A stretch of DNA of 64,000 bases from Arenicellales bacterium. GTDB lineage: Bacteria; Pseudomonadota; Gammaproteobacteria; Arenicellales; JAJDZL01. The stretch lies in NCBI GenBank assembly GCA_965214615.1, contig OZ243952.1, positions 2,648,468 to 2,712,467 on the forward strand, in the 5' to 3' direction. Shown piece by piece: positions 16,007-57,611 of the stretch; within the stretch, counting starts at the first letter, position 1, and every line of letters begins with the position of its first letter. Position numbers and translations under genes: made by a program. The notes under the pieces were generated by a model, which saw nothing but the letters and a program-made list of their open reading frames with translations, was not told the origin of the DNA and did no database searches.

Positions 16007-16028
16007 GCAAGACAGGCGGCAGAATCCC

Positions 16029-16643: not shown

Positions 16644-16694
16644 TCAGATGAAATACATCAACTTGCCGGATAATTGCCGGTACATATGAGTCAA

Positions 16695-18187: not shown

Positions 18188-18212
18188 TCCGAAAGCAGGA
18201 TATAAGTCAGAT

Positions 18213-22580: not shown

Positions 22581-22607
22581 CCGCACACTGCATTAAGGAG
22601 AGCTTGA

Positions 22608-24146: not shown

Positions 24147-24149
24147 CTC

Positions 24150-29896: not shown

Positions 29897-30033
29897 CCGC
29901 CGCAGACCCCTGATTGCCTGCCGACATTCCGGCAGGCACCGATGGTCCGAAGCAGGCGAATCGAGCAGCGGTTCGGGAACTCGGATTGGCTGCGCGGTCA
30001 GACTCGCGGATTGACCCGCCCGTGCGATTGCAC

Positions 30034-30651: not shown

Positions 30652-30803
30652 TGTCTGATTGTTCCCGATGGCAGACGCAAAAAGTCAATATTTTACTGCC
30701 ATGGCCTTGGAACTGAATTGATATTTTTGCACCGATTAAGACGCGCCGCAAGAGACGAAATGTCCTGCGCTAGGCACGGTCATCACTTCAAGGCACTCCG
30801 TCT

Positions 30804-33344
30804 TTATCCGGCTGTGCGGGTGCGTCGATACAGCCACAGCAGCAGCAATATGATCAGCGGGCCGGATGCCAGATTGACCGCCAGGACTACAGTGCGCAGC
30901 AATTGGACGCTTTCGCGCACTTGAAGGCGCAATTCACGCATTTGCGACCGCAGTGGAAGAGCCTGAATCTGCAGCTCGGCAATCTGACGCGAAACACCTT
31001 CAGGCAACTCGGCAGCCGAGGCCGCACCGGATTCGACGATCAGTTGCTCAATGCGCTGCTCAATGTCGAAGACGCGGCGTCCCAGCTCGGACTGGCTCTG
31101 CTGAACCGATTCGCCAGCTTCAGAGACAATCTCGGCAACCCGTGTAAATCGTCGATTCACTTCATCGCGAAGCCTGATTTCGTCAAGCCGGTAGCTGCCG
31201 GTGAGATATTCCACCAAGTTCAGGAACCACTGACGGTTTCCATTGATCGGTACAGCTGCAGCATTGCCATCGACGTGACGCACTTGTGCGGAAAACTGAT
31301 CATGGATCCAATCGGCATCGGCAATCGCAATCAGCGTGCCCGGTTTTTCATGCGCCGGATCGGTGCGATCGTCAAACGCACTGCCGATACCGCCCTGCAC
31401 CGCTGCCGCGACAACCCGGCTGGCCGAATCACTTTCGAATCGGTATGCCAGTTCCTCTATGCCAAGTCTCGAAAAAACTTTCTTGTCCAATTCGCCGCTT
31501 CCCGGACCCGTAATCAGCAAGGGCCGGGCAAACGACCCGGAGTCCAGTTCGAATGACCCCGGTTCGGCAAGAAGCAGATCTCGCTGCTGTCCGGCAACCG
31601 GGTGATCGAGACTCGCACCGTCGACCCCGAATCGGATCCAGAAAGGATACGCAATCGAAGCGCCGCCGCGCGTGGTCACCGGCATGCCCGTGTCGCGGTT
31701 GCCGACGACGACATGATCCATGTAGCGGATTCCATAATGGGCCAGCAAGTCAGACACATCGTTGATCTCGCTCGATATCGAAGTATTGACCGCATTGCCC
31801 GCAAGATCCAGCCGGCTGAACGGGTCCAGCATAGCAATGACGTTGCCTCCGTTGATCAGGAAATCATCAATCTGGCGCAGCAGCGACGCTCGCATGACCT
31901 TTGCGTTAAACAGCACCAGCAAATCGAGATCATGCGCCAATTCATCGGTAAAAAACGGCATCGCGGCAACATCGTACGATTTGCGCAACTGCGAAAGAAT
32001 GCTCAGGCCCTCGGCACCCGCGATCGCAGATCGGGGCTGAATGGCCGGACCCAGCAAGCCGACCCTAGGCACCTGCGGCGCTGCAAACGACGCCAGAATC
32101 ACGGCGATATCGTATTCAATGAACCGGCTTCGCGACAGGTCGAAATACGGAATCACGCCGGTTTGGCCGCCCTGTTCAAAGGCGGCCCCGAAATAGAAAT
32201 GCGCACCGCTAGACAGCGTAATCCTCTGCACTCCCCGCTCCAGCGCCTCCAGTTCCAGTTCGGTATCAAGACTGGGCGTCACGCTTTCAATGTCAAGCCT
32301 GCCGCCGGAGCGGGATTCGAGGATTGACAGGAACGACTCGACACGGCGGGCATGACTGCGGATGCTCACCGGCATGGATTCCTGATCTGCGCTGTAGTAG
32401 AGCGTCACCGCCGTATCAGAGGGCAGCGCATCGAGAATCTGCCGAGTGACCTGACTGATCGTGAATTCCTTGTGTTCAGTGACATCGAGGAACATTGATG
32501 CTGATTGAAGGGTCCACGCGAGCGGAACAATCGTCAAGCCAATGGCGGCGAGCACGATCAATGACCGCAGCGACACTTTTCGATGCACGCGATAGGATGC
32601 CAGCGCGAATGAGGCGATCAGAAACGCCGCCGTCGTCGCAGCAAAATAGGCCAGTGCCGCATACTCAAGACGCCCGGACAGGCATTCGCCGATCCAGTAC
32701 ATGGGACTCAATTGCTGAATGACCTGGATCACATAGGCCGGAACAATGCCCTGTGCCGTATCGGCAGTGACCTCCCATCCTCCTGCGGTCAGCACAAACA
32801 GAGTCACCGTGCCGAGGACGAACGAACTGGCCTGCTCGCGCGCTGCTACCGAACAAAGAAGCGCAATCGCGAAAAAGTTCCACAGCAAAAGCGCGCCGGC
32901 CAGATAGCTCGAAATGACAACGCCGGCGTCCAGATCCCCCAGATAGGCCAGCGTCGCCGGAAACGGCGCCGTCAGAACCAGAAACACAAGCAAGACAATT
33001 GCACCTGCCGCAAACTTGCCCAAAACGATGCTGGCCAGGCCCAGCGGCAATGTCTGCATCAATTCCATATTCCGGCTCTGAGTTTCGGACGGCCAGGCAC
33101 GCATCGCAAGTGCCGGCACAAACACCAGAGCCAGCCAAGGCAAGTATTCGAACATGACGCGAACGCTGGAATGATCGGAGTTGAACACATCCGCCACAAG
33201 CCACAAGCCGGCTTGAAGGGTAATCACGAAGCCGCCAAGAAAAATCCACGAAAGCGGCGAGCTAAGGCAGCTCGTCAACTCGTGTTCCGCAACGCACCAG
33301 ACCCTGCTTGCCAAAGGGGCGGCAGTTGCTTTCGGCACGCTCAT
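30804..33344 (-). CDS. fused ABC-2-type permease / GldG-like auxiliary domain protein
   Basis: 846 aa. About 280 aa of multi-pass ABC-2-like membrane domain is followed by a large soluble GldG-like region, a coiled-coil stretch and a terminal TM. The start overlaps the ATPase stop by 4 nt. Confidence 0.75.
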   Translation of the reverse strand: MSVPKATAAPLASRVWCVAEHELTSCLSSPLSWIFLGGFVITLQAGLWLVADVFNSDHSSVRVMFEYLPWLALVFVPALAMRAWPSETQSRNMELMQTLPLGLASIVLGKFAAGAIVLLVFLVLTAPFPATLAYLGDLDAGVVISSYLAGALLLWNFFAIALLCSVAAREQASSFVLGTVTLFVLTAGGWEVTADTAQGIVPAYVIQVIQQLSPMYWIGECLSGRLEYAALAYFAATTAAFLIASFALASYRVHRKVSLRSLIVLAAIGLTIVPLAWTLQSASMFLDVTEHKEFTISQVTRQILDALPSDTAVTLYYSADQESMPVSIRSHARRVESFLSILESRSGGRLDIESVTPSLDTELELEALERGVQRITLSSGAHFYFGAAFEQGGQTGVIPYFDLSRSRFIEYDIAVILASFAAPQVPRVGLLGPAIQPRSAIAGAEGLSILSQLRKSYDVAAMPFFTDELAHDLDLLVLFNAKVMRASLLRQIDDFLINGGNVIAMLDPFSRLDLAGNAVNTSISSEINDVSDLLAHYGIRYMDHVVVGNRDTGMPVTTRGGASIAYPFWIRFGVDGASLDHPVAGQQRDLLLAEPGSFELDSGSFARPLLITGPGSGELDKKVFSRLGIEELAYRFESDSASRVVAAAVQGGIGSAFDDRTDPAHEKPGTLIAIADADWIHDQFSAQVRHVDGNAAAVPINGNRQWFLNLVEYLTGSYRLDEIRLRDEVNRRFTRVAEIVSEAGESVQQSQSELGRRVFDIEQRIEQLIVESGAASAAELPEGVSRQIAELQIQALPLRSQMRELRLQVRESVQLLRTVVLAVNLASGPLIILLLLWLYRRTRTAG

Positions 33345-34051
33345 GCGTCGGCGACAGCCTGCCGGTATCGGGAGAATATTCTGCCGTTGCCGTCAAGCAA
33401 ATCGACCGTGGGGGAGTCTTCAAGAACCAGGCCGTCAGAAATAATAATGGCATGGCCGCATAGTTCTTCGACTTCTTCGAGAATGTGGGTGGAGACAAGA
33501 ATTGTTTTGCGCTCTGCCAAATTGGCGATTGCCGTTCGAAGGCTTTGCTTTTGCAGCGGGTCCAGGCCGTCGGTGGGTTCATCCAGGATTAAAATCGACG
33601 GGTCGTGAACCAGCGCCTGCGCAAGCCATGCGCGCTGGCGCCAGCCCTTTGACAGGCTGCCAAGCGTGCGATGCATCACCGGCGACATATCCACATGCGC
33701 GAAAACACGTTCAACAGCTTCGCTGCGCCGCTTTCGCCCCAGCCGCGACTGGGCGGCGAATTTCAGAAACTCCAAGACGGTCAACTCCTGGAATCCATGT
33801 GCAGATTCCGGCACATAGCCGATTTTGGATTGAATCGGCAAGCGCGCATCGCGCATGTCTTCGCCGTCGACGCGGATCGTGCCGGCATATGCGCCATAGT
33901 ACCCGGCGAGACAGCGCATCGCTGTCGACTTGCCGGCGCCGTTGGGGCCCAGCAGGCCGGCTACAGTGCCGCACTGCAATGTAAAACTGACATCCCGCAA
34001 TGCAACCGCAGGACCGAATCGCATGCTTAGATTTTGAACTTCAATAGACAC
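33341..34051 (-). CDS. ABC transporter ATP-binding protein (ABC-2/GldA-like)
   Basis: Walker A GPNGAGKST, signature LSKGWRQR, Walker B LILDEPTDGLD. Confidence 0.9.
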   Translation of the reverse strand: MSIEVQNLSMRFGPAVALRDVSFTLQCGTVAGLLGPNGAGKSTAMRCLAGYYGAYAGTIRVDGEDMRDARLPIQSKIGYVPESAHGFQELTVLEFLKFAAQSRLGRKRRSEAVERVFAHVDMSPVMHRTLGSLSKGWRQRAWLAQALVHDPSILILDEPTDGLDPLQKQSLRTAIANLAERKTILVSTHILEEVEELCGHAIIISDGLVLEDSPTVDLLDGNGRIFSRYRQAVADA

Positions 34052-34128
34052 GGCATCAATTTGCGACTGCCCAGGCAGCGCCGTTGCTCCCGCGCAGTCC
34101 AGTCCTGGACCCTGAGTGCGCCGTCAGG

Positions 34129-34335
34129 CTATGCGAGATACCCGGCCACAATAAAGACAAGGATGCTGAATCCGGTCAGACCGTATCCCAGCCAGAGCAG
34201 CACCCGTCCGAGCGCGCTCTTGCCTGACTTGCCCATTATGATACTGCCGGCGGTTGCCATGATCGCGCCGACAATCGCTGCGGTGATGAAAACTGGACGC
34301 TGGGCGACCAATTCGAGCAGGTTCCAGAATCCCAT
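34129..34335 (-). CDS. small two-TM membrane protein, hypothetical
   Basis: MGFWNLLELVAQRPVFITAAIVGAIMATAG...LLWLGYGLTGFSILVFIVAGYL gives two clear hydrophobic helices. There is no clear Shine-Dalgarno, so the call is tentative. Confidence 0.4.
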   Translation of the reverse strand: MGFWNLLELVAQRPVFITAAIVGAIMATAGSIIMGKSGKSALGRVLLWLGYGLTGFSILVFIVAGYLA

Positions 34336-34379
34336 AGATAAAAATCTTCGCAAAGCGCAGCACGCTGCAGCAGCGGCGA

Positions 34380-35216
34380 TCAGCCGGATTGCGAGGACAG
34401 CGCGCTGACCAGGTCGCCCTGAGTCGAGGCGCCGAAACTCTTTTTCGCCTCATCGTGCAGAATCTCAAGCGCCTGGCGCTTGTATTCGTAGACCTCGGGC
34501 AGAGTAAGCATGTGAAAATCCCGCGGTCGCGGAAGGCTGATGTCGATTATGTCCCGAACAGTCGTGGGCGTATTGGACAGCACGACAATCTGGTCGGCAA
34601 GGAAAATCGCCTCGTCCAGCTCCGACGTGACAAAGATATGCGTGCGCTGGGAGTCCTCGTACAGCTTCAGAAAGAATTCCTGCATCAGTTGCCGCGTCAT
34701 CGCGTCGAGGCCGCGGAACGGCTCATCCATGATCATCAGCTCGGGCTGGTTGATCATGGCGCGGGCAAGCTCGGCACGGCGCTGCATTCCACCGGAAAGC
34801 TGCAGCGGATACTTGTCGGCGAACTCGGTAAGGCCGACAATGCCAAGCAGTTCGTGGGCGCGCCTGCGCAGTTCGCGGCCTTTAAGGTCGCCGCGCAGCT
34901 TGGGGCCGAAAATGACATTCTGGTATGTCGTCAGCCAAGGCAGCAGGGTTGTTTCCTGAAACACCACCATGCGCTCATGCACCGGACCGGCGATAGCTTT
35001 GCCGCCAACACTGATCTTGCCCGAATCGGGACGCTCGTAGCCGGCAACCAGATTGACCAGCGTCGTCTTACCGCAGCCTGACGGGCCGACCAGCGCAGTC
35101 AATGTGCCGGGCTGCACCACAAGACTGAAGTTTTCAATGATCTGATGCCGGTCCCACGCTTCGCCGTAGGACTTGCTCACACCGCTTATTTCAACAGTTA
35201 CTGCATCCACTGCCAT
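34380..35216 (-). CDS. ABC transporter ATP-binding protein, NitT/TauT family (canonical signature)
   Basis: ATG at 35216, 4 nt after the upstream permease stop. GPSGCGKTT, LSGGMQRR, MIMDEPFRGLD. Confidence 0.9.
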   Translation of the reverse strand: MAVDAVTVEISGVSKSYGEAWDRHQIIENFSLVVQPGTLTALVGPSGCGKTTLVNLVAGYERPDSGKISVGGKAIAGPVHERMVVFQETTLLPWLTTYQNVIFGPKLRGDLKGRELRRRAHELLGIVGLTEFADKYPLQLSGGMQRRAELARAMINQPELMIMDEPFRGLDAMTRQLMQEFFLKLYEDSQRTHIFVTSELDEAIFLADQIVVLSNTPTTVRDIIDISLPRPRDFHMLTLPEVYEYKRQALEILHDEAKKSFGASTQGDLVSALSSQSG

Positions 35217-35220
35217 ACTC

Positions 35221-36120
35221 CTAGAACAGACGCCGCCAAGGCATGGAGATTTCTCCGATCTTGCGAATCGCGCTGCTCGACAGGTAGCCCGCAATACCGA
35301 TACTGATCATTCCCACGACGATCTGCTCCAAAGAGCCGCCCATGTAGGAATTCCAGATGAAAAAGCCCAGACCGCCGCCGGCCTGAGTGCCGCCGCCGGA
35401 TATCATTTCCGCTGCGAGCACGACTTCCCAGGTAATTCCCATTCCCACTGCGGCGCCGGTGAAAATCGACGGCAATGTTCCGGGAAGAACAATCTTGAAA
35501 AACAGGTGACGCTGCGTGGCGCCCATGGACTGAGCGGCCCTGAGATAATTGATATCGATGCTTCGCGCACCGCCGACCACGTTGATCACGATCGTAAAGA
35601 AGGCGCCGAGGAATGTCACGAACGCAATGGACATTTCATTCGTCGGCCAGAAAATCAGCGAAGCCGGCACCCACGCCAGAGGCGGTATCGGGCGCAGCAC
35701 TTCGAATGGCGCAAAGAACACGGATCGAAAATAGCGGTTGACCGCCAGCGCGAGCCCGAACGGAATCCCGATCAGCTGCGCCGCAATGAATCCTTGAAAC
35801 ACGCGCCAGAAGCTCAAATACCAGCTCTCCCAGTATCCTCGCTTGAAAATCACATCGCCCCAGGCGACCAGAACATCGGCCGGCGGCGGGACCAGGCCGA
35901 TCCACGGCAGCTGGTATCCGAACCATTCGTCCCATCGCGCGCCGATCTCCCACAGAACGATGAACAGCAGAATCGCCGCCACTCCGCGCCATAGCTTGGT
36001 ATTCGCCCTGACTTTCTGCTTGAACGAAGTCCGATAAAGCGCATCCATCTTGGTTGCGCGGCTGTCAGGGGCGGATGACGAAGCGCCTTGACTGTCCGTT
36101 TGCTCACTCATTGGATCCAC
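35221..36120 (-). CDS. ABC transporter permease, NitT/TauT family
   Basis: Multi-pass membrane protein of the BPD-transporter type. Tightly packed between the two ATPase genes. Confidence 0.88.
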   Translation of the reverse strand: MDPMSEQTDSQGASSSAPDSRATKMDALYRTSFKQKVRANTKLWRGVAAILLFIVLWEIGARWDEWFGYQLPWIGLVPPPADVLVAWGDVIFKRGYWESWYLSFWRVFQGFIAAQLIGIPFGLALAVNRYFRSVFFAPFEVLRPIPPLAWVPASLIFWPTNEMSIAFVTFLGAFFTIVINVVGGARSIDINYLRAAQSMGATQRHLFFKIVLPGTLPSIFTGAAVGMGITWEVVLAAEMISGGGTQAGGGLGFFIWNSYMGGSLEQIVVGMISIGIAGYLSSSAIRKIGEISMPWRRLF

Positions 36121-36126
36121 CTCGTA

Positions 36127-36966
36127 TCAAGCCAGCTCGCGCTCGCCCGCTTCAAATGCCTTTTGCGCTTCTTCATGGACTGCGTCGTTCGCCTCGTCGA
36201 CCAGTTCGCGGAATTCCTCCGAAGACAGCACGTGATAATCCCGCGGCCGCGGAATGTCCACATTGAGAATAATCTTGGTCTTCGCCGGCCGGGTCGTCAT
36301 CACAACAACCTTGTCGCCGAGAAAGATCGCTTCTTCCAGATCATGCGTGATAAAGAAAATGGTCACCTTGGTGCGATCATACATTTCAAGCAGCGCTTCG
36401 TGCATGATCGACTTGGTCAGCGCATCCATCGCCCGATAGGGCTCATCGAGAAGCAGTACGCTTGGCGAATTGATCAGCGCCCGCACAATCTCGGCCCTTC
36501 GCGCCATTCCTGACGACACTTCGCCAGGGAATTTCTTTACGAAGGAACCAAGACCCGCTTCATGCAGCATTTCCCCTGCCTTTTCCCGAGCCTGAGCCGG
36601 CTTCAGGACTCCTTGCACAATCGGACCGTAGGCGACGTTGTCGAGCAGAGATTTCCATGGAAACAGCGCACCATTTTGAAAAACCACGACACGGTCGGCA
36701 CCTTGCTGCGCCAGCGGCCTGGATTCGTCGCAAAGCAATTCGCCATCAAGATGAATCGAACCGAAGGTTATGGAATGAAAGCCGGCGATCGCATTCAAAA
36801 GTGTCGTCTTGCCGCAGCCAGACGGACCGACAACCATGCACACTTCGCCCGCAGCGATGTCAAGCGAGCAGTCATCGACTGCCATCACATTCACTCCGCT
36901 CGGATCGTAGATCTTCGTGACGTTGCGAATGTCCAGGCGTCCCTTTGGCGCACCGTTCGAACTCAT
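36127..36966 (-). CDS. ABC transporter ATP-binding protein, NitT/TauT family, with a degenerate signature motif
   Basis: Walker A GPSGCGKTT and Walker B LLLDEPYRAMD are intact. The signature reads VSSGMARR (nt 36496-36519) instead of LSGGxxQR. Confidence 0.9.
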   Translation of the reverse strand: MSSNGAPKGRLDIRNVTKIYDPSGVNVMAVDDCSLDIAAGEVCMVVGPSGCGKTTLLNAIAGFHSITFGSIHLDGELLCDESRPLAQQGADRVVVFQNGALFPWKSLLDNVAYGPIVQGVLKPAQAREKAGEMLHEAGLGSFVKKFPGEVSSGMARRAEIVRALINSPSVLLLDEPYRAMDALTKSIMHEALLEMYDRTKVTIFFITHDLEEAIFLGDKVVVMTTRPAKTKIILNVDIPRPRDYHVLSSEEFRELVDEANDAVHEEAQKAFEAGERELA

Positions 36967-36967
36967 G

Positions 36968-37837
36968 CTACCGGTTCTCCAGGGCCAGTGCGCGGGTACG
37001 CCACTGCATCAATCGGTTGCCGGCCATGCGGACCAGGGCGGATGTGCCCCAGCCTACGAAACCCAGTGTCAGCATCCCGATCACCATCGGAATGGTCACA
37101 TTGTTCATGAACGCATCGACAATGAGGTAGCCGAGCCCCCAGTCCCCTGAAACCATCTCGGCCGCAACCAGCGAAAACCAGGCGACGCCGATGCTGATCT
37201 GCAATCCTGTAAAGATAAATGGCAGCGCACCGGGGACGACCACATGGAAGAATACGTGCCTAGGCTTCGAACCGAGGCATCCAGCCGCTCGGAAATACGC
37301 CTCATCAATGGAATCGACGCCCAGCAGCGTGTTCAGCGTGGTCACGAACAGCGAGGCCAGAGTCGCGAGAAAGATGACCGGCGTTTCAAACCCCTTGAAC
37401 ATCAAAATTGACAGCGGCACCCAGGCGAGAATTGGAATTGGGCGGAATGTTTCAAGAATTGGAAACAGGTATTCGCGAACCTTCTTCGACCAGCCCATGA
37501 ACAATCCAAGCGGAACGCCGACGCCGGTCGCAATGCAGAATGCAAAAAACACCCGCCGGCAACTGACGTATATGTGCTCGTAGAATTCTGCGGTGAAGAA
37601 CGAAATGCCTAGAAACGGCTCGACGGATGTCAGTTCCACGATGACGCGCCAGGGGCCGGGCATTTTCTCAAACCTCGGCAAATTCCAGACTTCGGAAAAC
37701 AGCTCCCAGGTGCCGAGCCACAATACGATCCCGAACGCCATCAGATACGGCACCGGAGATCTAAGCCGCTTGGCCAGCTTCAATCGAAGAATGCGGGCCT
37801 TGCTGTATTGAGGCGCAGAATTTTCTTTGTCGTTCAC
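36968..37837 (-). CDS. ABC transporter permease, NitT/TauT family (second permease)
   Basis: Multi-pass membrane protein. Its stop lies 1 nt before the ATPase start. Confidence 0.88.
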   Translation of the reverse strand: MNDKENSAPQYSKARILRLKLAKRLRSPVPYLMAFGIVLWLGTWELFSEVWNLPRFEKMPGPWRVIVELTSVEPFLGISFFTAEFYEHIYVSCRRVFFAFCIATGVGVPLGLFMGWSKKVREYLFPILETFRPIPILAWVPLSILMFKGFETPVIFLATLASLFVTTLNTLLGVDSIDEAYFRAAGCLGSKPRHVFFHVVVPGALPFIFTGLQISIGVAWFSLVAAEMVSGDWGLGYLIVDAFMNNVTIPMVIGMLTLGFVGWGTSALVRMAGNRLMQWRTRALALENR

Positions 37838-38002
37838 GCTAATTCCAAAAAAGATAAAACAACTATCGGGGTTTCATGTGAATGCGCCTGCCGTCGTGTT
37901 GCGCGAATTTCAACGCCGGCATAAGGCAATTACGCCGGCGTTGATTCAGCGCTTCAAGCCGAAGGCATGCGCCTGATTAGAAAGTATAGCCGCAACTTGC
38001 GA

Positions 38003-39133
38003 TCAGCCCGACCTTTCCATGCAATTGATCACTGCAAACGGAGCGGTCAAGCCACGTCCTTCGACAACCTTGCGGGCAAACGAGTCATCCACTCCGCCTT
38101 CGCGAATGGAGTCTGCCGCAGCCGGCTTCTTCGGCAGGCTGTACAGGAACGCGGTTGCGCGATCAAGAAGCTGCTGGACTTTCGGAGTGATATACATGTT
38201 CAGCTCATTTTTAACTGCGCCTCCGCCTTGGGACTCGGGCGAGCAGCCGTGTGCGGCACTCCAAAGATGCTCGCGGTCGACCTTTTCGGTCTGATCGTCC
38301 GCCAATTCGGCTACGCGGTCATAGTTCGCCGGATCAGACATGAACAGCTGAGCGTCCATTTCCGCTTCCATCCAGCCTGCAACCGCATCCGGGCGCTGAT
38401 CGACCAAATCGCCAAGCATCGTCATGAACGCACCGTCAAGGGCATCGAAGTCTTCACCGCTCGCCGCTCGGCGCGCGATTCCGGACATTGCAATCTTCGA
38501 GGCAGTCGGCTCCCAAATGGCCGCCGCATCAAGTTTGCCGGCGCGGAAGTTCGTCGTGATCACTTCGATGTTCTGATTCAGGTAGCGCTCAGGCTCGATT
38601 CCGGCTTTCTGAAATGCCAGCCGAGCGAAACGGTCCGTGCACGCGCCGTGGGGTGCAGACGTAATCTTTCCGTCCATCCACGCAACCGCTTCCGCACCGT
38701 TGGCGAACTCGGGAGCGTCGTTGCGCACGAGAAAGATATTGCACTGCTGCTTGGAAATTCCCAGCGAAGCCATGATCCGAATGTCCGTGCCGCCGCGCTC
38801 TTTCAAATTGCGAAACGTCGCCGCGATTGCAGGCATATCGCCCATGTATCCGATGTGCTGTTTCTCGCCGGTCATCGCGTTGACAATGACAGACCCCTGA
38901 AGGCCGATCTGAAATTCGACGCTCGACCCTTCGGGCAGGTATTTCTTCCACAGCTCCAGCCCGTTGTTGACAACACCCGACCAGGACTCGGTGTAATAAG
39001 GCTGATAGCCGACCACAAGATCGATCGCCTCTCCCTCGTTGCCGAAATCGACGTCGGACTGCGCGACTTGCGCCGCCATAGCCATCGCTGCGCCGGCGCA
39101 CAGCGCAACACTGTATTTTCTCATTCTATTCAT
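38003..39133 (-). CDS. ABC transporter periplasmic substrate-binding protein (NitT/TauT/NMT1-like)
   Basis: ATG at 39133. Signal peptide MNRMRKYSVALCAGAAMAMAAQVAQS. SBP-like body. The long plus-strand ORF here is an antisense shadow. Confidence 0.85.
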   Translation of the reverse strand: MNRMRKYSVALCAGAAMAMAAQVAQSDVDFGNEGEAIDLVVGYQPYYTESWSGVVNNGLELWKKYLPEGSSVEFQIGLQGSVIVNAMTGEKQHIGYMGDMPAIAATFRNLKERGGTDIRIMASLGISKQQCNIFLVRNDAPEFANGAEAVAWMDGKITSAPHGACTDRFARLAFQKAGIEPERYLNQNIEVITTNFRAGKLDAAAIWEPTASKIAMSGIARRAASGEDFDALDGAFMTMLGDLVDQRPDAVAGWMEAEMDAQLFMSDPANYDRVAELADDQTEKVDREHLWSAAHGCSPESQGGGAVKNELNMYITPKVQQLLDRATAFLYSLPKKPAAADSIREGGVDDSFARKVVEGRGLTAPFAVINCMERSG

Positions 39134-39268
39134 TGAACTCACTCTCTCTTTCTGCAAAATATGCCGGACGCAAACCGTCGCGGCGTGAACCAAATAGTAA
39201 ACTACTGGAATCGTGTCGGCGCAATAGAAAATTCACATCAGTCAATTTGCACCGCCTATATTCAATTT

Positions 39269-40315
39269 TCAGGCGAACTTGTCATAGCGGATCTTTGACG
39301 CCGGGATCTTTTTCTGCGTCACCAGCATCTTCAGCGACGCATCCACCGCCGGAGGCGGTCCTGCGACAAACACGGTCGAGGTGTCCGACAAGTCCGGCAG
39401 TCGCTTGTGCGCCACTTCATGCAAGTAGCCTTTTTCGAATTCGATATTCTTGAAATTCGCCTTCATGCGTCCTTCGTCGCTGTCGTCGACGAGTGCCACG
39501 CATACGCTTAGATTACTCCATTGGGCGCTCAGACTGTCGAGCAGCGAAGCGAAGAAAATATCGCGCATGCTGTTCAGTCCGAACACCAGGCGCATTCTGG
39601 CATCGCGCAGGTGTCCGGCATGGACTGCCCAGTCGAGAATTGCCATGATGCCGGCGATGCCGGTGCCTCCGGCCAGAGCGGCGATTTCCGTTTCGCCTTC
39701 AGGCAAGGCCACGGCGCGTCCCATCGGGCCAAATCCGGCGAGCCGGGCACCGTCGCGCACGTGTTCAAACAGCCAGTTCGTGAATGAACCGTCGCTCACG
39801 CGCTTTACCACAAACTTCAAGGCGCCGCTATCGCGGTCATATCCGCTGGTCATCGAGTACGCCCGGTAGCCGGGTATGCCGGGATGCTCGAGGGCGACGA
39901 ATTGTCCCGGCAAATATTCGATGTCCGCATCGATCGCAAGTTCGAACTCGGTCACGTCGGCGTTCAAAAAGCGCTGATTGCGAATTTCACCGGAAAAGTA
40001 TTGCGGAACCGGCAGCGGTATCGGAAATCTCGGCGCCGCGCGGACACGGATATGCACATCGTCCGTCAAGGCTGCGCTTTGGCACAGCAGGTGCTCACGG
40101 CGTTGCGGCTTGACATATCGCAGGCCCGGCGCCTTTGGCCAGGCAAGATCCAACTCCCCGCTTTCCAGCACTGCCTTGCATGTGCCGCAAGTCCCGGTCC
40201 CGCATTCGTAGGGAAGCGGCAATCCGTGCCGCAGTCCGCAATACAGCAGCCGTTCTCCCGCAAACGGCTCTACGGTTCTCGTCTTTTCACCGCGATGAAG
40301 GACAACAGCCATCAA
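39269..40315 (-). CDS. oxygenase reductase component: plant-type [2Fe-2S] ferredoxin domain fused to an FNR-like FAD/NAD(P)H domain
   Basis: CGTGTCGTC...C cluster ligands, RAYSMTS (RxYS FAD motif) and GGTGIAGIMAIL (NAD-binding). Confidence 0.85.
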   Translation of the reverse strand: MMAVVLHRGEKTRTVEPFAGERLLYCGLRHGLPLPYECGTGTCGTCKAVLESGELDLAWPKAPGLRYVKPQRREHLLCQSAALTDDVHIRVRAAPRFPIPLPVPQYFSGEIRNQRFLNADVTEFELAIDADIEYLPGQFVALEHPGIPGYRAYSMTSGYDRDSGALKFVVKRVSDGSFTNWLFEHVRDGARLAGFGPMGRAVALPEGETEIAALAGGTGIAGIMAILDWAVHAGHLRDARMRLVFGLNSMRDIFFASLLDSLSAQWSNLSVCVALVDDSDEGRMKANFKNIEFEKGYLHEVAHKRLPDLSDTSTVFVAGPPPAVDASLKMLVTQKKIPASKIRYDKFA

Positions 40316-40333
40316 GTGCGCATGCCGTGTGAT

Positions 40334-40687
40334 TCAAAAATCGTCATCTTCATCGTCTTCGAATTCGTATTCCAATTCCTCTTCGATGAATGCGTACAGG
40401 CGGTCGCCGTCGACTTTGGTCTGATATTGAAGCAAGGGCTTTTCGGCAGGATCCAGCACTTCGCCTGTTCGCATGTTCCAAGACCAAAGATGCTTCGAGC
40501 ATGTCAGGCGGTCGCCGTCGCAAATTCCGGAATCCGCGAGCGGCTCCTCCATATGCGGGCAAACCGGCGGGAATGCACGGAACTGGTCGCCCAGATTGGC
40601 GATCAGAATTTCAATGCCATCGACTTCGAACTCCTTTAGCTTGCCGCTTTTGACAGCGTCGGCCGCGCAGACTTCTTTCCAGCTCAT
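40334..40687 (-). CDS. Rieske-type [2Fe-2S] ferredoxin component
   Basis: CPHMEEPL...CSKHLWSW (CxH...CxxH), 117 aa, acidic tail EEELEYEFEDDEDDDF. Confidence 0.85.
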   Translation of the reverse strand: MSWKEVCAADAVKSGKLKEFEVDGIEILIANLGDQFRAFPPVCPHMEEPLADSGICDGDRLTCSKHLWSWNMRTGEVLDPAEKPLLQYQTKVDGDRLYAFIEEELEYEFEDDEDDDF

Positions 40688-40718
40688 ATCGTTGCGACCA
40701 AAAGCGCCTGGAGCCCGC

Positions 40719-41210
40719 CTAGAGCGGGTAATGGCAACCTTTCTGCAGATTGCGCGTATCGAGCTTGAACTCGCGGCGCGTGAATTTAATCCCGTCTCCG
40801 TTCAAACGGAACTGGTCCTGGTAGGTGCCCGCGACGTACAGCTCGGTACTTCCGGAGGTCATATGCGACATGCTGCCATCCCAGTGCGTCATGTAGACCG
40901 CGACGGAGGTTGTCGCTGTCGCCGTACCTTGGGATTCGTCAATCTCGACGTCATACACCACAGCATGGCGGCGAAGCGGCGAACGGTCGCTGTTGTGTTT
41001 CGGAAGCATGGAGACCAGCGATTCGATTTCAGACTTGGAACCGCTGAGGTAGATCATGTCCTTGCGGACTTCCGGAGAAAACGCGGTGATCAGATATTCG
41101 AAATCCTCTTCGCACATGTCCAGCCAATCGTCCCAGCGGTATTCATTCTTGTACAGGCACGACCGGTAGATCATCCGGTCAATCGTCTGACGGGTTTCTA
41201 AACTGTCCAT
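40719..41210 (-). CDS. Rieske oxygenase small (beta) subunit, NTF2/SnoaL-like
   Basis: 163 aa with the typical YRWDDWLDMC...F.Y beta-subunit N-terminal pattern. It lies immediately downstream of the alpha subunit gene. Confidence 0.8.
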   Translation of the reverse strand: MDSLETRQTIDRMIYRSCLYKNEYRWDDWLDMCEEDFEYLITAFSPEVRKDMIYLSGSKSEIESLVSMLPKHNSDRSPLRRHAVVYDVEIDESQGTATATTSVAVYMTHWDGSMSHMTSGSTELYVAGTYQDQFRLNGDGIKFTRREFKLDTRNLQKGCHYPL

Positions 41211-41275
41211 ACTCTATGGTTCCCTAATGAATTTTTGCACGGTGTACGGTCAACTGCTTCGCAGCGCGCATGCGG

Positions 41276-42541
41276 CTAGGAAACAGCGTGCAGTTGTTCC
41301 GAGCGTTCCTGAGGGAACGGAAGTTCCGGATTGCTCGGATTGCGATTCAGGTAGCGTCCCCACTCTTCGTAGTAGTGGCGCATGCCGTTCTCGTCGTGAA
41401 TCGTCTGATTCTCGTGCCGGCCATGCAGGATTCTGCGCGAGTCGGCGCCGTGCTGCATCGCCACGGTCTGGCCGGTGACTGCGAGAAGATCCTCATGCAG
41501 GTTGCGGCCGAACGGCCCCCAGATCGAATTGTGGTGCCGTATGCGCTCCTGGCGCTGCTCGGGGGTGTCGCTTTTCAGCCCCAGTCCCCGGAACTCGATC
41601 ATCAGCTTATCCGGCCCCAGCGGAGTCATCAGGTCGCAGCGCAGCGCGGATCCGCGAAGATTGAAATTAACGCCGGGGAACATATCGATCATGTACCAAT
41701 GATTGGGCGGCAGGTGCGGAAACGAAAGATTGCCGCGATCGTCAAATCCTTCGTAATTGTCGTACTTCACTTCAAACGTTCCCACTGTGACGTGCCCGTT
41801 CGGGTAGCCGGTGTTGGGCCGTGCAAAATAGGCGTCATTGAAGCCTGTAATGCGGTTGTGGTAGTGCAGGTAGTCGTGGTAGAACTCCGAGTTGGTGTCA
41901 TGCCACAGCTTGTAGTTGGTGTTTACGATGGCCTTGTGATAGTGGAATATCTCCAACGGCTCCTCGTTGAGCGACGCGCTTAGACAATCGAAAGCGTGAC
42001 CGCCCCACTCGGCTACCGACATCTCCATGCCGTCATCCAGGCAGACCCAGACGAATCCGCCGAAATGAACTTCGCATTTCAGCTCCCGCAACGATGCGCA
42101 ATCCTTGGAGAAACGGTCCTGATAGCCTTCCTTCTCGCGAGAGATATACACGCAGCGCCCTTTCATGTCGAACTGCCAGGCATGAAACATGCAGGTCATC
42201 CGTTTCGGCGTTCCCGAAGGCGTTCCGCGCTTGTAGCTGCCCGAGGGACGCAGTTCAATCGTATTGCTGCGATGCGGGCATACGTTCAGGAATGCGCGAA
42301 CCCTATTGTCCTTGGCACGCGTGAGAATGATCGGTTCGCGCGCAATTGAAAGCGTGCGGAAATCATAGGGGTTAGGCAGTTCGGACTCATGGCATACCGG
42401 AATCCAGACCTTTTTCCAGATTTTTTCTATTTCTTCCTCGAAAATGTCGGGGTCGGAATAGATGCGGCTGTCCACCCATTCGCCGTCTGCAAGCGGCGGA
42501 CGCGCCTGCCATTGCTCCCTGTTGCGTGTTCCGTTATTCAT
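41276..42541 (-). CDS. Rieske non-haem iron oxygenase large (alpha) subunit, divergent
   Basis: Rieske ligands C88-P-H90 and C117-M-F-H120 (nt 42182-42280). Catalytic-domain His cluster NSEFYHDYLHYH. 421 aa. Confidence 0.88.
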   Translation of the reverse strand: MNNGTRNREQWQARPPLADGEWVDSRIYSDPDIFEEEIEKIWKKVWIPVCHESELPNPYDFRTLSIAREPIILTRAKDNRVRAFLNVCPHRSNTIELRPSGSYKRGTPSGTPKRMTCMFHAWQFDMKGRCVYISREKEGYQDRFSKDCASLRELKCEVHFGGFVWVCLDDGMEMSVAEWGGHAFDCLSASLNEEPLEIFHYHKAIVNTNYKLWHDTNSEFYHDYLHYHNRITGFNDAYFARPNTGYPNGHVTVGTFEVKYDNYEGFDDRGNLSFPHLPPNHWYMIDMFPGVNFNLRGSALRCDLMTPLGPDKLMIEFRGLGLKSDTPEQRQERIRHHNSIWGPFGRNLHEDLLAVTGQTVAMQHGADSRRILHGRHENQTIHDENGMRHYYEEWGRYLNRNPSNPELPFPQERSEQLHAVS

Positions 42542-42582
42542 AGCTCTACTCCTTTATCAATGCAGTTAGCAATTGCGTGCGC

Positions 42583-43461
42583 CTACTTCGAGGCGCTCCA
42601 ATTGGTCAGACTCTCAAATTTCTCACGCTCCTGATCAGACATGTAGACAGTATGCTCCGGACCCGGGTAGATGCGCTCGCGAACTTCGTCCCGATAGCGT
42701 GTGAACACGTCTTCCATGATTGGGATCAGGTCGGTATAGATCTTCGAATGGCGCGGCGTATGCTCCTCGTACAGGTGAAACAGGTCGGAGGTAATGATGT
42801 GAACGCCGTGCGCCTTGTTGCCGGCGCCCAGGCTGATGACCGGAATCGGCAGCGTTTCGGTCAGATACTGGCAAAGCTCCTCACTCGTCACCTCGCACAG
42901 CAGTGAAAAGCATCCTGCATCAACCATTGCATGGGCGTCGTCGATCAGTTCCATGGCCCGGTCGGCTGTCTTGCCCTGGGCGAAGAATCCGCCCAGCTGC
43001 GGCATGCGCATCGGCGTGATGCCGATATGTCCCTGTACCGGAATTCCGGCCTTGACGATGGCCTCGATATTTTTCGCATGGTGCCGGTTGCCTTCGCATT
43101 TCATCACTTCGGCATTGGCCTCGTGCACGAAGCGCCCCGCATTCTCCACAGCCTGATCAGGCGATACGTGAAAGCTCCAGTACGGCATATCGACCATCCT
43201 CAATCCGTACTGGCTGCCCCGGTCAATCGCTTTGGCCATCATCATGACCTCGTCGAACGTCACAGTGACGGTGCTGGAGTGGCCGAATAGGATCATGCCT
43301 CCGGTATCGGACACGCACAGGATGTCGATGCCCAGCCGGTCTGCGATGACGGCACTTCGATAATCGTAGATTGCCATTTGAACGATTTGGTCATCGTTCG
43401 CCATTTTGCGCTTCAGTGCGTTGATCGTAACTTTACGACGCGGTTTTGAATCAGTGCTCAT
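42583..43461 (-). CDS. 3-methyl-2-oxobutanoate hydroxymethyltransferase (PanB) family protein
   Basis: End-to-end PanB-like sequence (DILCVSDTGGMILFGH, VDMPYWSF, VKCEG, IPVQGHIGITP, LLCEV...IPVISLGAG). It is the first gene of the minus-strand cluster. Confidence 0.85.
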   Translation of the reverse strand: MSTDSKPRRKVTINALKRKMANDDQIVQMAIYDYRSAVIADRLGIDILCVSDTGGMILFGHSSTVTVTFDEVMMMAKAIDRGSQYGLRMVDMPYWSFHVSPDQAVENAGRFVHEANAEVMKCEGNRHHAKNIEAIVKAGIPVQGHIGITPMRMPQLGGFFAQGKTADRAMELIDDAHAMVDAGCFSLLCEVTSEELCQYLTETLPIPVISLGAGNKAHGVHIITSDLFHLYEEHTPRHSKIYTDLIPIMEDVFTRYRDEVRERIYPGPEHTVYMSDQEREKFESLTNWSASK

Positions 43462-43943
43462 GAGTCATTTCTCTTTTTTGCTGTGATGTCTCCGAACGAA
43501 TGCCAACTTTCAGCGCATCCATTGATTAGTGGTGCAATAGATTATGTTCGCCAGAATATGCCAGTCAACCAGTTTGTACTTATGAGTCGATAGGCAATGT
43601 CTCACATTGGCCGGTGCAGCGAGGCGCACGCTGCCATTTCGAAGTCAACGACAACCAGCCGAGCTGTCATTGAAAGTGCAGTGCGAGTTTGCGTGCGCAA
43701 TGGCGACGCTCACCTTCGGGACAAAAAAGTCCAGGAACACGGGCCCTTGGAGTCTCGCCGCATCCGGAGCATTGGCATGCTGCATAGCATCGGCTTTGAG
43801 CCTGCGAGGCGGATATTCACAATCGAACGCAGGACGGATCAATTGCGCAGGCAGGCAATGGTCGAATTCTCGGCTTGAGGACGTGCAGAGGAAATCCGCG
43901 CGTCAGCAGATGCCGGTGCACGATCGTGCACCGCAAACTTGGC

Positions 43944-45134
43944 TCACTTACTCCCGATCAACTTAATGAACTCTGTTATTCCGAGCGCATCGATATCTGT
44001 GGCTAGTGGGAATCTTTCTTCACCCGGATAGATCACGTATTTCTCGGTTGCCCCGACATCCTTGCACCCTTCGTAAAATCCTCTGGAAACTTTCGGCGCT
44101 GTTGAGAATTTGATTTCAACGGCGCATGTTCGGCTGTTCGGCAACTCAAGTATCAAGTCGATTTCCGCTCCTGCTCTGGTGCGGTAATAGCTGAACTTCC
44201 AATGATCGCGCAATTCGCGGAGTATGTTCTCCACTACGAACGCCTCCCAGCTTGCCCCTCTGACTGAGTGACCTCGCAGGTCGTCAATGTTCCTTATAGT
44301 CAGGAACCAATGCGCCAGCCCGGAATCTCGCAGATACATTTTCGGGGTCTTGATCAAGCGTTTTCTTGCGTTTCCATGCCATGCGGGAAGCATTCGAACC
44401 ACAAAAGCCGAAACCAGGCTGTTCAGATAGCTTTTTATTGTGTTGTAGCTCACCCCTAGGCTTGATCCAAGCCGAGAAAAGTTCAGTTGCTGCGAATTTT
44501 CCCAAGCCAGCATTGACCAGAATACTCGTGTCGTGGTGGACGGAATCGATATGCCCATTTGCGGAATATCACGCTCAACGTATGAATGGATAAAGTCGGA
44601 TCTCCAGTTCCAGCTGCGCGAGTCCGAGTGCGCCGTAAAACTCTTGGGGAATCCGCCTCTCAGCCACAGCGATTGAAGATCCGATTCGCCGGATTTGTTA
44701 TCTTCGAGTTCAAGTATCGAAAACGGATTGATTTCGATAAACCGAATTCGACCAGCCAAAGTTTCCGAGGACTGACGAAGCAGGTCCCAGGAAGTCGAGC
44801 CAAGAATCAAAAACTGCGACGTCTGCTCCCCGTCACGAATTCTGGAATCGATAATGCTGCGAAGGAGCGGAAACAGGTTGGGCTTGCGCTGTACCTCGTC
44901 AATGATTAGCAGTTTGCCGCGGCACGATTCCAAATACGGTTCCGGATCGTCAATCTTCGCAAGATCCGAAACTCGTTCAAGATCAAGATAGACTGCCGGC
45001 TTTTCGATTCTTTTTGACACGTTCAGCGCAAGAGTTGTCTTTCCGACCTGGCGTGCGCCGAGCAGAGCGGCGGCGGGCATTTCGTCCAACGCGGCAATGA
45101 TTTGATTCTCGATTTTAATTCTGCTGAACATCAT
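43944..45134 (-). CDS. AAA-type ATPase with a DUF4143-like C-terminal region (COG1373-like)
   Basis: Walker A GARQVGKTT and Walker B LLIIDEVQ. The C-terminal half resembles DUF4143 (RFPKSF..., YRTRAGAEIDLIL). Somewhat AT-richer than its neighbours. Confidence 0.82.
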   Translation of the reverse strand: MMFSRIKIENQIIAALDEMPAAALLGARQVGKTTLALNVSKRIEKPAVYLDLERVSDLAKIDDPEPYLESCRGKLLIIDEVQRKPNLFPLLRSIIDSRIRDGEQTSQFLILGSTSWDLLRQSSETLAGRIRFIEINPFSILELEDNKSGESDLQSLWLRGGFPKSFTAHSDSRSWNWRSDFIHSYVERDIPQMGISIPSTTTRVFWSMLAWENSQQLNFSRLGSSLGVSYNTIKSYLNSLVSAFVVRMLPAWHGNARKRLIKTPKMYLRDSGLAHWFLTIRNIDDLRGHSVRGASWEAFVVENILRELRDHWKFSYYRTRAGAEIDLILELPNSRTCAVEIKFSTAPKVSRGFYEGCKDVGATEKYVIYPGEERFPLATDIDALGITEFIKLIGSK

Positions 45135-45168
45135 TGCTTATTATAAGTATGATTTATAATTAGCAATG
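45132..45168. promoter_or_regulatory. near-perfect 15-bp inverted repeat spanning the ATPase start codon
   Basis: CATTGCTTATTATAA gtatgat TTATAATTAGCAATG has 14 of 15 complementary positions. The left arm contains the CAT (ATG on the minus strand) at 45132-45134. Confidence 0.4.
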
Positions 45169-45908
45169 ATGTTTTTTATACGCATAATGTTTTCCTGTTG
45201 AGATGTGACGGCTGAAATCGACCGGCACAATGAACAGGAATTCATTTCCGGCGGCGGATTGGAATTTTCTTCTCCGAGTCAGTTCGGCGAACTGCCGGCG
45301 AGTTGTCAGGCATTTCCAGAAAATTCTCCTCCTTAGGGACTCATTTGCTAGCCCAATACAATCCGATTGCGCATTTTTAGCGCGAATTCGTGCGGCTCGC
45401 ATCCCCTGGCTACCCGGACTCCGGCTTCTCAGGCTCCCGACTCCGGCGAATGCGGGACTTATCCGGAGATTGCGGTGCCTATCCGGAAATTTGGCCGCAG
45501 CGTTCCACTTACAGCCTCGGTTATTCAAGTCGAATGCCCGAACCTTGAAGTCGCGAGTCGCATTACAATACTCCGTTTTCTCAAGTCGGTTTGAATTTTC
45601 CACTGCATTGCCCTGATTGTTGCTTACGCTATAAAAAGTCATCCCGCAACCCGAGTTGCCGGGCGTATGGAATCCGCATGGCGCGTTCACGGACATGAAG
45701 CTTGGGCGGAGGCGAGGACTTGAACAGGTATTGCATGTTATCGCTGATGCCCGCCGCGCAAGCGGTTGATGTACCAAACAGCAGGGATCGCGCGAACCGC
45801 AACAGGACGAATTGGCAGCAAAGCACATCATATTCTCGCTGTTCTTGAACTGGTCAGATGCTGGCAGTGGCTTGGCGATATGGATTCTTCGCGCTTTCAG
45901 GTATCATC

Positions 45909-45928
45909 AATTGAATTGAATTGAATTG
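45909..45928. repeat. (AATTG)x4 pentanucleotide tandem repeat
   Basis: aattgaattgaattgaattg read directly, about 95 nt upstream of the LysR gene start. Confidence 0.9.
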
Positions 45929-46022
45929 CTTACGAGTGAAGCTGGACCAGAACTTCGAAGTATAATTTTTTGACATTGGCGCCGTCAGGGTTCCAGCCAG
46001 ACACATAGGCAGGCTTCAAACG

Positions 46023-46994: not shown

Positions 46995-47479
46995 AGCCGG
47001 AAGGCTGCCTTAAGAAGGCGATCGATCACCCGCTACAAATTCGACCGCCAATGCGTCTTGCTATGCCATAGTGCGAGAATCATCTGGGTTGCGGTTCAAC
47101 CGGCGAGAAATCGAGGTGCCGTTCCTCGCCGATAGATTTGTGCCTATCAAAAAACGCCTGGAATTATCAAGAATTTTTTTTCGGCTAATAGATACGAAAT
47201 TGAGCAGGTGATGATCTTAAATTTTTGATCTATTGATTTCCTGCAGGTACTTTTTCCAGTTTTTTGGCATGATGCGCATTATTGGAACCTGCAGTCGTTC
47301 ATCTGATCGCATTCTGCACAGTTTTCGATTCAGCGAGCCGACAGCGGCAACTGGACGGAAGCTGTCGTCTGCGACACGGTCGGATGTTCATTGCGCTTGA
47401 CGCAATCACCGAGTGCCAGTCGTTGCGGACGTGACGATCAACGAACGGCTTTATCGTCGACGCGTTCGGAGCTTGCGTT

Positions 47480-50637: not shown

Positions 50638-50756
50638 CCCGTCGCGCGCTGCAATGCAATTTTGATCACGCGGATGCGCACTGGCCAGATCAATATCCCT
50701 ATGCCGGTTGTGTTGACAATGCACGATCCCGAACCGCGCTGCCGGGCGCCGCTGCC

Positions 50757-57542: not shown

Positions 57543-57611
57543 ATTGAATAACTGTCGGATTAGTTGGTATTGATCAGTTCACCGGGCTTGATAGTACGCA
57601 CGAATGCGCGC

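Follow-up and report, generated by a model that had tools for sequence, protein, structure and literature searches.

We have analyzed a group of genes within a window of 64,000 nucleotides (the whole stretch of DNA under study, from contig OZ243952.1 of an Arenicellales bacterium), in which a gene of the PanB family lies beside a four-component Rieske oxygenase and an ATP-binding cassette (ABC) importer. Ten consecutive, co-directional open reading frames (ORFs) on the minus strand fill the interval 34380-43461, and Pfam and NCBIfam support the domain assignment of all ten. The co-directional arrangement, the domains and the gaps of 1-165 nt given in an initial annotation agree with the ORF calls and profile matches, and its count of nine genes becomes ten on both its own list and the sequence. 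Four starts were refined to an ATG with a ribosome-binding site inside the longest ORF (msmD 40312, msmE 39133, msmH 36111 and msmI 35216). With these starts the intergenic gaps in cluster order are 41, 65, 31, 21, 135, 165, 1, 15 and 4 nt. The genes are listed in that order, under the names of the methanesulfonate (MSA) utilization genes, msm, to which we assign them below.

42583-43461, minus strand: PanB-like gene (PanBL); PF02548, E = 7e-80; putative specialized, msm-linked paralogue of ketopantoate hydroxymethyltransferase
41276-42541, minus strand: msmA, large (alpha) hydroxylase subunit; Rieske and Ring_hydroxyl_A domains, motif CPH-X26-CMFH
40719-41210, minus strand: msmB, small (beta) hydroxylase subunit; Ring_hydroxyl_B/SnoaL_4
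40334-40687, minus strand: msmC, Rieske-type [2Fe-2S] ferredoxin; Pfam Rieske, position after msmB conserved
39269-40312, minus strand: msmD, NADH-dependent reductase; Fer2, FAD_binding_6 and NAD_binding_1, BenC/MmoC-like
38003-39133, minus strand: msmE, periplasmic substrate-binding protein; NMT1_2/SsuA family, signal peptide
36968-37837, minus strand: msmF, permease; BPD_transp_1, TauC/SaoP-like
36127-36966, minus strand: msmG, ATPase; ABC_tran, taurine/nitrate-type
35221-36111, minus strand: msmH, second permease; BPD_transp_1
34380-35216, minus strand: 'msmI', second NitT/TauT ATPase and fifth transporter gene; ABC_tran, ATG with AGGAG at 35216

The N-terminal signal sequence of MsmE is MNRMRKYSVALCAGAAMAMAAQVAQS, and a weak hairpin (38002-37990) lies directly after the msmE stop codon. 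In essentially all related loci msmB adjoins msmA, with 38-69% identity, and in nearly all of them msmI follows msmH. The same gene set in the same order is seen in dozens of independent genomes and metagenome contigs, and thus the arrangement is not due to chance.

Relationship to the methanesulfonate utilization system

The combination of a Rieske system with a NitT/TauT importer, for which the initial annotation knew no characterized pathway, is that of msmABCD and msmEFGH, the genes for an MSA monooxygenase (MSAMO) and its transporter that have been described since the late 1990s (PMC4433239). The Rieske motif of the window alpha subunit is CPH-X26-CMFH. A spacer of 26 residues (CXH-X26-CXXH) is specific to MsmA, other Rieske oxygenases having 16-18 residues, and every strain with demonstrated growth on MSA carries it (Henriques and De Marco, PMC4433239). 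We find that the spacer is exactly 26 residues in 127 of the 127 MsmA homologues collected. A homologue search with the alpha subunit gave 1392 relatives, the best 120 of which are 68-89% identical over the whole length; among these 120 every functionally specific name is 'methanesulfonate monooxygenase large/alpha subunit'. These two lines of evidence, spacer and homologues, settle the question of the substrate of the alpha subunit. With its X26 spacer and 68-90% identity to MsmA, this subunit lies inside a clade of known substrate, and the earlier proposal of an uncharacterized pathway has to be given up. The nearest solved Rieske alpha structures were also considered as a guide to the substrate and set aside. 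Only the Rieske half aligns (E about 1e-22), matching nitroarene, phenylpropionate, carnitine and biphenyl oxygenases, and is uninformative on substrate.

Scanning one genome per species for msmA gave 80 loci (69-90% identity), of which those in two Arenicellales metagenome-assembled genomes (MAGs), L001 and L051, are the closest; Filomicrobium insigne, Hansschlegelia and Methylocella are also represented. Filomicrobium insigne belongs to the same genus as the MSA-degrading strains Y and W, and so its homologues support a close relation to the MsmA of MSA growers, as does an identity of 68-77% between the window alpha subunit and proteins bearing the MSAMO name. The identities to its proteins are 73% (A), 50% (B), 48% (C) and 38% (D) for the oxygenase, and 65% (E), 71% (F), 77% (G), 74% (H) and 57% (fifth ATPase) for the transporter; two further ABC genes that follow the cluster are 52% and 36% identical to their counterparts. 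The gene content of the window corresponds to that listed for Filomicrobium strain Y (Table 1 of PMC4433239), down to the fifth ATPase and the additional pair of ABC genes. The four MSAMO components are encoded together, and their order A-B-C-D is conserved in related loci. Beside them stand the components of an MsmEFGH importer, a secreted NMT1/SsuA-type binding protein with NitT/TauT permeases and ATPases.

Comparison with the msm genes of Methylosulfonomonas methylovora M2 and of Filomicrobium shows the same four oxygenase components in the same order, the same X26 spacer, and a binding protein, permeases and ATPases of like type. The Filomicrobium Y region further shares the fifth ATPase, the two additional ABC genes, a LysR gene at the edge of the region and a PanB-family gene. 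There are also differences. All genes of the window cluster are co-directional (panBL-msmABCD-msmEFGHI), whereas the M2 and Filomicrobium operons diverge. The PanB-family gene of strain Y lies about 12 kb from msmA, whereas PanBL of the window adjoins it. The TauE, GcvT-like and SoxCD genes of the Filomicrobium region are absent from the window, and the host here is gammaproteobacterial, with Arenicellales MAGs as the closest relatives. Taken together, the locus is very probably an msm cluster for the import and breakdown of MSA. Judged from its sequence it is a further instance of the known system, in a gammaproteobacterial lineage.

The PanB-like gene

Of the 80 genome loci, which come from Alpha- and Gammaproteobacteria, 64 carry a PanB-like gene (69-88% identity) no more than 10 kb from msmA. 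In Gammaproteobacteria PanBL is directly upstream of msmA. In Xanthobacteraceae and Pseudolabrys it is downstream, in the order msmABCD - hypothetical - LysR - TauE - GcvT-like - PanB-like - TauE. Among the 16 loci without PanBL nearby, five end before the expected position, and seven are of the Filomicrobium/Hansschlegelia type, where the gene is about 12 kb from msmA in strain Y and falls beyond the 10-kb flank; for L003, a PanBL of 88% identity is taken to sit elsewhere on the chromosome. In metagenomes, 68 PanBL loci extend far enough to be judged; msmA follows immediately downstream in 46 of them, and is found within a few kilobases in five more. The pairing of the PanB-like gene with the alpha subunit that had been singled out from the window is thus a recurrent one, in genomes and metagenomes alike. 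No neighboring panC or panD was found in 160 loci around msmA or PanBL, and no second PanB in the 64-kb window. On plasmids no PanBL match reached 60% identity, all matches being ordinary panB genes. Within the searchable literature, a search for MSA genes or MSA monooxygenase linked to PanB or hydroxymethanesulfonate returned a single item, the 3-methyl-2-oxobutanoate hydroxymethyltransferase gene that is listed without study in the msm region of Filomicrobium strain Y (Table 1 of PMC4433239).

PanBL is the most conserved of the cluster proteins compared. In the 96 loci with all four proteins complete, the mean pairwise identity is 0.81 for PanBL, 0.75 for MsmA, 0.59 for MsmB and 0.47 for MsmD. 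PanBL and MsmA vary together in this measure (r = 0.83), much as true subunits do (0.87 for MsmA-MsmB and 0.86 for MsmA-MsmD), from which we infer that PanBL co-evolves with MsmA.

The PF02548 match covers profile positions 1-258 of 259. In the NCBIfam models, PanBL scores 207.3 bits with TIGR00222, marginally below the cut-off of 207.55, and 246.7 with NF001452, clearly below the cut-off of 272. It aligns over its full length with the ketopantoate hydroxymethyltransferase (KPHMT) PanB of E. coli (1M3U) and M. tuberculosis (1OY0) (EC 2.1.2.11; E = 1e-40 to 3e-46), but is only about 31-37% identical to the solved PanBs, and its partners are msm, sulfite and folate genes rather than pantothenate genes. 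When 1.84 billion representatives were searched exhaustively, a single full-length PanBL representative came up, at 78% identity; after it the identity drops to 47% and 45%, and to at most 40% for canonical PanBs. PanBL thus forms a single isolated clade (one cluster at 50% identity).

We compared 63 PanBL with 47 canonical PanB sequences, using E. coli numbering. D45, D84, K112, E114, H136 and E181, the residues of Mg2+/enolate-type catalysis, are invariant in both sets. These six residues are described as the strictly conserved catalytic set of PanB, the paper printing D46 for the position taken here as D45, and the motifs LVGDS, HLGLTPQS, IPVIGIGAG and DGQILVMHD surround the ligand pocket (PMC13488298). 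In PanBL all four motifs are altered, to CVSDT, HIGITPMR, IPVISLGAG and HGVHIITSD. The changes L42C, G44S, S46T, Y90F, Q142M, S143R, G201S, Q211V, I212H and F229H are fixed in all 63 PanBL sequences, and D209H and G220H in 90% of them; in the 47 canonical PanBs the altered positions are 62-98% fixed to another residue. Two positions that were mutated to shift the substrate range of E. coli KPHMT, I202 and I212 (PMC7611260), are leucine and histidine in PanBL. The predicted net effect on the pocket is a loss of hydrophobic and acidic side chains and a gain of one arginine and several histidines, which would suit a small anionic substrate. PanBL thus has the character of a specialized paralogue, and we infer that it is not the housekeeping pantothenate enzyme.

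A set of matches to P0246 was considered as a sister clade and rejected as contaminated, as 14 of 25 are true PanBL (66-82% identical to the window PanBL, and including P0400 and P0405). The sequences that truly belong to the sister clade (P0246, P0391-P0394 and others) are without D84 and K112, and are not used here as evidence for the chemistry of PanBL. They are 41-48% identical to the window protein (for example L161, 51-956, and L163, 8001-8882, the latter from Arthrobacter mangrovi), yet keep S44, R143, S201 and H229, and they likewise adjoin TauE and folate genes. The Arthrobacter mangrovi gene is clustered with a second PanB-family gene, methylenetetrahydrofolate reductase, PurU, FolE, PabB, ThyA and a transporter of the major facilitator superfamily. 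The sister clade may be another enzyme linked to sulfite and folate.

The neighbors of PanBL in other genomes are of two kinds, concerned with folate and with sulfite. In many other msm loci TauE and a GcvT-like protein are directly upstream of PanBL; the GcvT-like protein matches both GcvT and the GcvT-like region of the trimethylamine N-oxide (TMAO) demethylase model. Among the 160 loci around msmA or PanBL we find formate-tetrahydrofolate (THF) ligase (Fhs) in 11, FolD in 27 and a SorA-like protein in 19. The ligase gene lies between PanBL and msmA, as in several marine contigs, or immediately after PanBL, in the metagenome contigs L092, L096, L097 and L098 and in L039, L044, L099 and L105 (in L105 it was located by tblastn), a position that ties PanBL to folate-linked one-carbon (C1) oxidation. 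FolD and a SorA-type molybdenum sulfite oxidoreductase stand beside PanBL in further loci. Of the members of the PanBL clade that have no recognizable msmA nearby, L164 is found with TauE and GcvT, and L165 with Rieske proteins and a molybdopterin/NrfD-type oxidoreductase of SoeABC-like domain content.

Two loci are unusual in themselves. In L056, a 21-kb alphaproteobacterial msm locus, there are two copies of PanBL (about 907-1812 and 18345-19250), each 92% identical to the Pseudolabrys copy, and formate-THF ligase lies beside one of them. In L070, labeled as a MAG of Polaribacter sp., a complete cluster of the gammaproteobacterial type (LysR-TauE-panBL-msmABCD-EFGHI) is found on a contig binned as Bacteroidota, through either a binning error or recent horizontal transfer.

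Surroundings of the cluster

The conserved unit is larger than 34380-43461. It is bordered by a divergent LysR gene on one side and two ABC genes (30804-34051) on the other.

46023-46994, plus strand: LysR-family regulator, divergent from the cluster; Pfam HTH_1 and LysR_substrate
43541-43568, minus strand: sigma-70-like promoter candidate TTGACT-16-CATAAT, about 80 nt upstream of PanBL; 10 of 12 consensus positions
33341-34051, minus strand: GldA-like ABC-2 ATPase; ABC_tran, GldA-like at 218.7 bits, under the model cut-off
30804-33344, minus strand: fused GldF-like permease/GldG-like auxiliary protein; ABC_transp_aux and DUF7088, GldF and GldG matches

From the LysR gene through panBL-msmABCD-EFGHI the window is collinear with L001 and L051, and the LysR gene itself is syntenic with those of the two MAGs, at 73% DNA identity. 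Its product and the LysR of the Pseudolabrys msm locus L027 share 44% identity. Most msm loci have a LysR homologue at their edge, and as a rule a TauE sulfite exporter comes next. What lies between LysR and PanBL varies, being TauE in most relatives and a methyltransferase in L001. In the window (43944-45831, minus strand) this slot holds a DUF4143/AAA_14 ATPase and an ORF of 223 amino acids without a family match, and the GC content falls to 0.50. The drop in GC suggests an insertion or replacement where relatives carry TauE.

On the other side, homologues of the GldA-like ATPase (43-56% identity) occupy the same position in many loci, as do homologues of the GldF/GldG fusion (33-50% identity), the start of which overlaps the upstream gene by 4 nt. 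Many Alpha- and Gammaproteobacteria keep the pair at this place behind the msm transporter, and its counterparts in the table for Filomicrobium Y are two genes without a name, entered as 'ABC transporter', the GldA-like gene being 'ABC transporter 10447-9716'. From its sequence the pair looks like an exporter.

The promoter candidate upstream of PanBL is the best sigma-70-like consensus match within 29800-47200. We found no terminator-like hairpin in the panBL-msmA gap, but a few weak terminator-like matches inside coding regions further down the cluster. Since promoter and terminator counts do not exceed those of shuffled sequence, it is the short gaps that suggest co-transcription, with a start upstream of PanBL.

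Further genes for sulfite metabolism are present in the window. AprA and AprB are encoded at 55240-57542 (minus strand), scoring 988 bits against an equivalog cut-off of 642 and 192 against 136, respectively. Together with a QmoC/AprM-like membrane protein that follows them, they make up an adenosine 5'-phosphosulfate (APS) reductase module (55240-58406, minus strand), at a distance of 12 kb from the msm genes. Behind the last ABC gene of the cluster comes an APS kinase (CysC; 30034-30651, minus strand). Conversion of sulfite to APS has been treated as a sulfite-oxidizing route in a study of SAR116 (PMC8547437), and the Apr module and CysC could oxidize or activate sulfite from MSA and taurine.

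A block of methyl-group and organosulfonate genes occupies 7525-25247 (plus strand). It comprises an Opp-type ABC system with two binding proteins (7525-16006), two MttB-family methyltransferases (11010-12449 and 22608-24146), a TauD-like dioxygenase (17189-18187; at 307 bits slightly short of the 313 required for taurine dioxygenase), and a fusion of DAO and GcvT domains resembling dimethylglycine dehydrogenase (20169-22580), all on the plus strand. A thiamine pyrophosphate enzyme (50634-52358) was examined as a sulfoacetaldehyde acetyltransferase and rejected; it matches the 5-guanidino-2-oxopentanoate decarboxylase family. A Fic-domain protein (4510-5988) lies in the stretch of lowest GC content in the window (4001-6000; 0.455, against about 0.56), which may be horizontally acquired DNA. 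There are no tRNA genes within the window.

A possible role of PanBL in one-carbon transfer

In the accepted reaction of the family, MSA is imported and hydroxylated by MsmABCD with NADH and O2, giving formaldehyde and sulfite (PMC4433239). By homology, in the present organism MsmE, the permeases MsmF and MsmH, and the ATPases MsmG and the product of the fifth gene would import MSA. The hydroxylase MsmAB would receive electrons from NADH by way of the reductase MsmD and then the Rieske ferredoxin MsmC, and would hydroxylate the methyl group to give hydroxymethanesulfonate, and from this formaldehyde and sulfite. The divergent LysR protein (46023-46994) probably controls the cluster, and the sulfite is probably disposed of by the AprBA system 12 kb away. 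PanBL would move the hydroxymethyl or C1 unit derived from MSA to THF, giving 5,10-methylene-THF, which would then enter folate-linked C1 oxidation or assimilation. The mechanism guessed at in the initial annotation therefore stands in its first half, hydroxylation of the methyl group of an imported small polar substrate being the accepted MSAMO reaction; its second half, transfer of C1 to THF by the PanB-like enzyme, is still conjecture, if the best-supported reading.

As a whole, an MSA cluster with PanBL as a C1-to-folate paralogue is probably the best explanation of the locus. Its parts do not stand equally firm. On gene context and residue patterns, we regard the chances that PanBL feeds a C1 unit into the folate pool as about even. 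It is a more tentative suggestion that hydroxymethanesulfonate itself is the substrate of PanBL. Equally speculative is the activity that would follow, a hydroxymethanesulfonate:THF hydroxymethyltransferase that releases sulfite. Such an enzyme would cut the C-S bond by retro-aldol chemistry of the PanB type, sulfite rather than an enolate being the leaving group, and hand the C1 unit straight on to THF.

Is there a need for such an enzyme? As a chemical, hydroxymethanesulfonate persists, and formaldehyde and sulfite combine to give it again. Its hydroxyl group is said to have a pKa near 11.7, a value credited to Sorensen and Andersen in 1970. The cleavage constant is about 43 s-1 at high pH, with an equilibrium that favors the adduct (PMC6459274). 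This constant is taken to refer to the alkoxide form, and with the above pKa we estimate a half-life of minutes at pH 7-7.5. The formaldehyde-bisulfite adduct is stable in water, more so than other aldehyde-bisulfite adducts (PMC11250035). From this stability and the position of the equilibrium, a cell oxidizing MSA at growth rates would therefore gain from catalyzed cleavage and removal of both products. Such a gain is in keeping with the repeated occurrence together of a sulfite exporter, folate enzymes and PanBL, which suggests that cells actively pull the hydroxymethanesulfonate equilibrium apart.

Two known systems may be compared. TauD and SsuD hydroxylate the sulfonate-bearing carbon to give a 1-hydroxysulfonate, which yields sulfite and an aldehyde. 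The desulfonation logic is the same, although the enzyme families are different. The 1-hydroxysulfonates of TauD and SsuD are less stable than hydroxymethanesulfonate (PMC11250035), which makes the need for a separate cleavage step less likely there. As for the second system, the GcvT-like domains of dimethylglycine dehydrogenase, the sarcosine oxidase alpha subunit and TMAO demethylase trap formaldehyde as methylene-THF. The proposed logic is again the same, in that oxidative demethylation releases C1 at the level of formaldehyde, which is trapped as methylene-THF. PanBL is however of an unrelated fold, that of the PanB family, and the window cluster has PanBL and no GcvT-like gene. We know of no PanB relative for which a role in capturing C1 on THF has been shown.

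A number of observations weigh against, or limit, this reading of the locus as a whole. Formaldehyde and THF condense spontaneously, and an enzyme for the step is not obviously needed. PanBL keeps the whole catalytic set of PanB and could still act on 3-methyl-2-oxobutanoate. It is not strictly tied to msmA, which is missing from the available flank in 17 of the 68 metagenomic loci. The TauE, GcvT-like, FolD and Fhs genes seen beside PanBL elsewhere are absent from the window cluster. The MsmA assignment is linked to MSA growers through the Filomicrobium homologues and database names, and not through the proteins of strain M2, the source of the purified enzyme. Lastly, sigma-70-like and terminator-like sites are no commoner than in shuffled sequence.

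PanBL might act instead as a folate-independent aldolase, scavenging formaldehyde by its addition to a 2-oxoacid such as pyruvate, for detoxification or assimilation. It retains the metal and base residues for enolate chemistry, and E. coli KPHMT and its I202A and I212A variants add many 2-oxoacids to free formaldehyde, although these reactions ran at 50-500 mM formaldehyde, far above the physiological range (PMC7611260). At one locus (L159) the genes after PanBL encode an HpcH/HpaI aldolase and a 2-hydroxyacid dehydrogenase, but an HpcH context is found in only 2 of 160 loci, and the recurrent neighbors are GcvT-like, FolD and formate-THF ligase rather than enzymes processing 4-hydroxy-2-oxoacids. 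We therefore consider such an aldolase improbable. It is a good deal less probable still that PanBL is simply the pantothenate PanB of the organism, or a redundant copy, placed beside msmA by accident or to meet an extra demand for coenzyme A. The full-length PF02548 match, the six catalytic residues and the 31-37% identity to solved PanBs would accord with this, as would the public annotations as 3-methyl-2-oxobutanoate hydroxymethyltransferase and the lack of a second PanB within the 64-kb window. Yet all four pocket motifs are altered, at positions of 89-98% invariance in canonical PanB, and both NCBIfam PanB scores fall short of their cut-offs, the linkage to msmA recurs in two proteobacterial classes at 71-88% identity and with co-variation with MsmA, and the neighbors are TauE, GcvT-like, Fhs, FolD and msmA, with no panC or panD at any examined locus.

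The least credible of the alternatives is that an uncharacterized pathway for a different small polar substrate is encoded here, the likeness of the cluster to msm being at the family level only. Some database proteins labeled MsmA are indeed not true MsmA (PMC4433239), but these false MsmA proteins lack the X26 spacer that is present in the window protein. Whole-length identity of 68-90% to the MsmA family, and synteny with Filomicrobium Y that reaches the transporter and the accessory ABC genes, also argue against it, so that we give it hardly any weight. An MSA cluster in which PanBL passes C1 units to folate remains the preferred reading.

The msm-linked PanB paralogue has, to our knowledge, never been studied. 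As far as could be found, the association of a PanB gene with msm had been recorded once, and its conservation, its altered pocket and its folate and sulfite context are newly shown here. MSA is a major product of the atmospheric oxidation of dimethylsulfide, formed at roughly 10^10 kg a year (PMC4433239), and recognition of the cluster would assign its degradation to a gammaproteobacterial lineage near the Arenicellales MAGs. If PanBL catalyzes the transfer of C1 to folate, it would fill a gap between the oxidation of MSA and C1 metabolism, and would be a new reaction for the PanB family, which is known for a single biosynthetic step. It would also provide a better set of markers for MSA degraders in metagenomes. 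Should hydroxymethanesulfonate itself be its substrate, the 'spontaneous' second step of MSA degradation found in textbooks would be enzymatic, and PanBL loci without msmA could permit the direct use of environmental hydroxymethanesulfonate.

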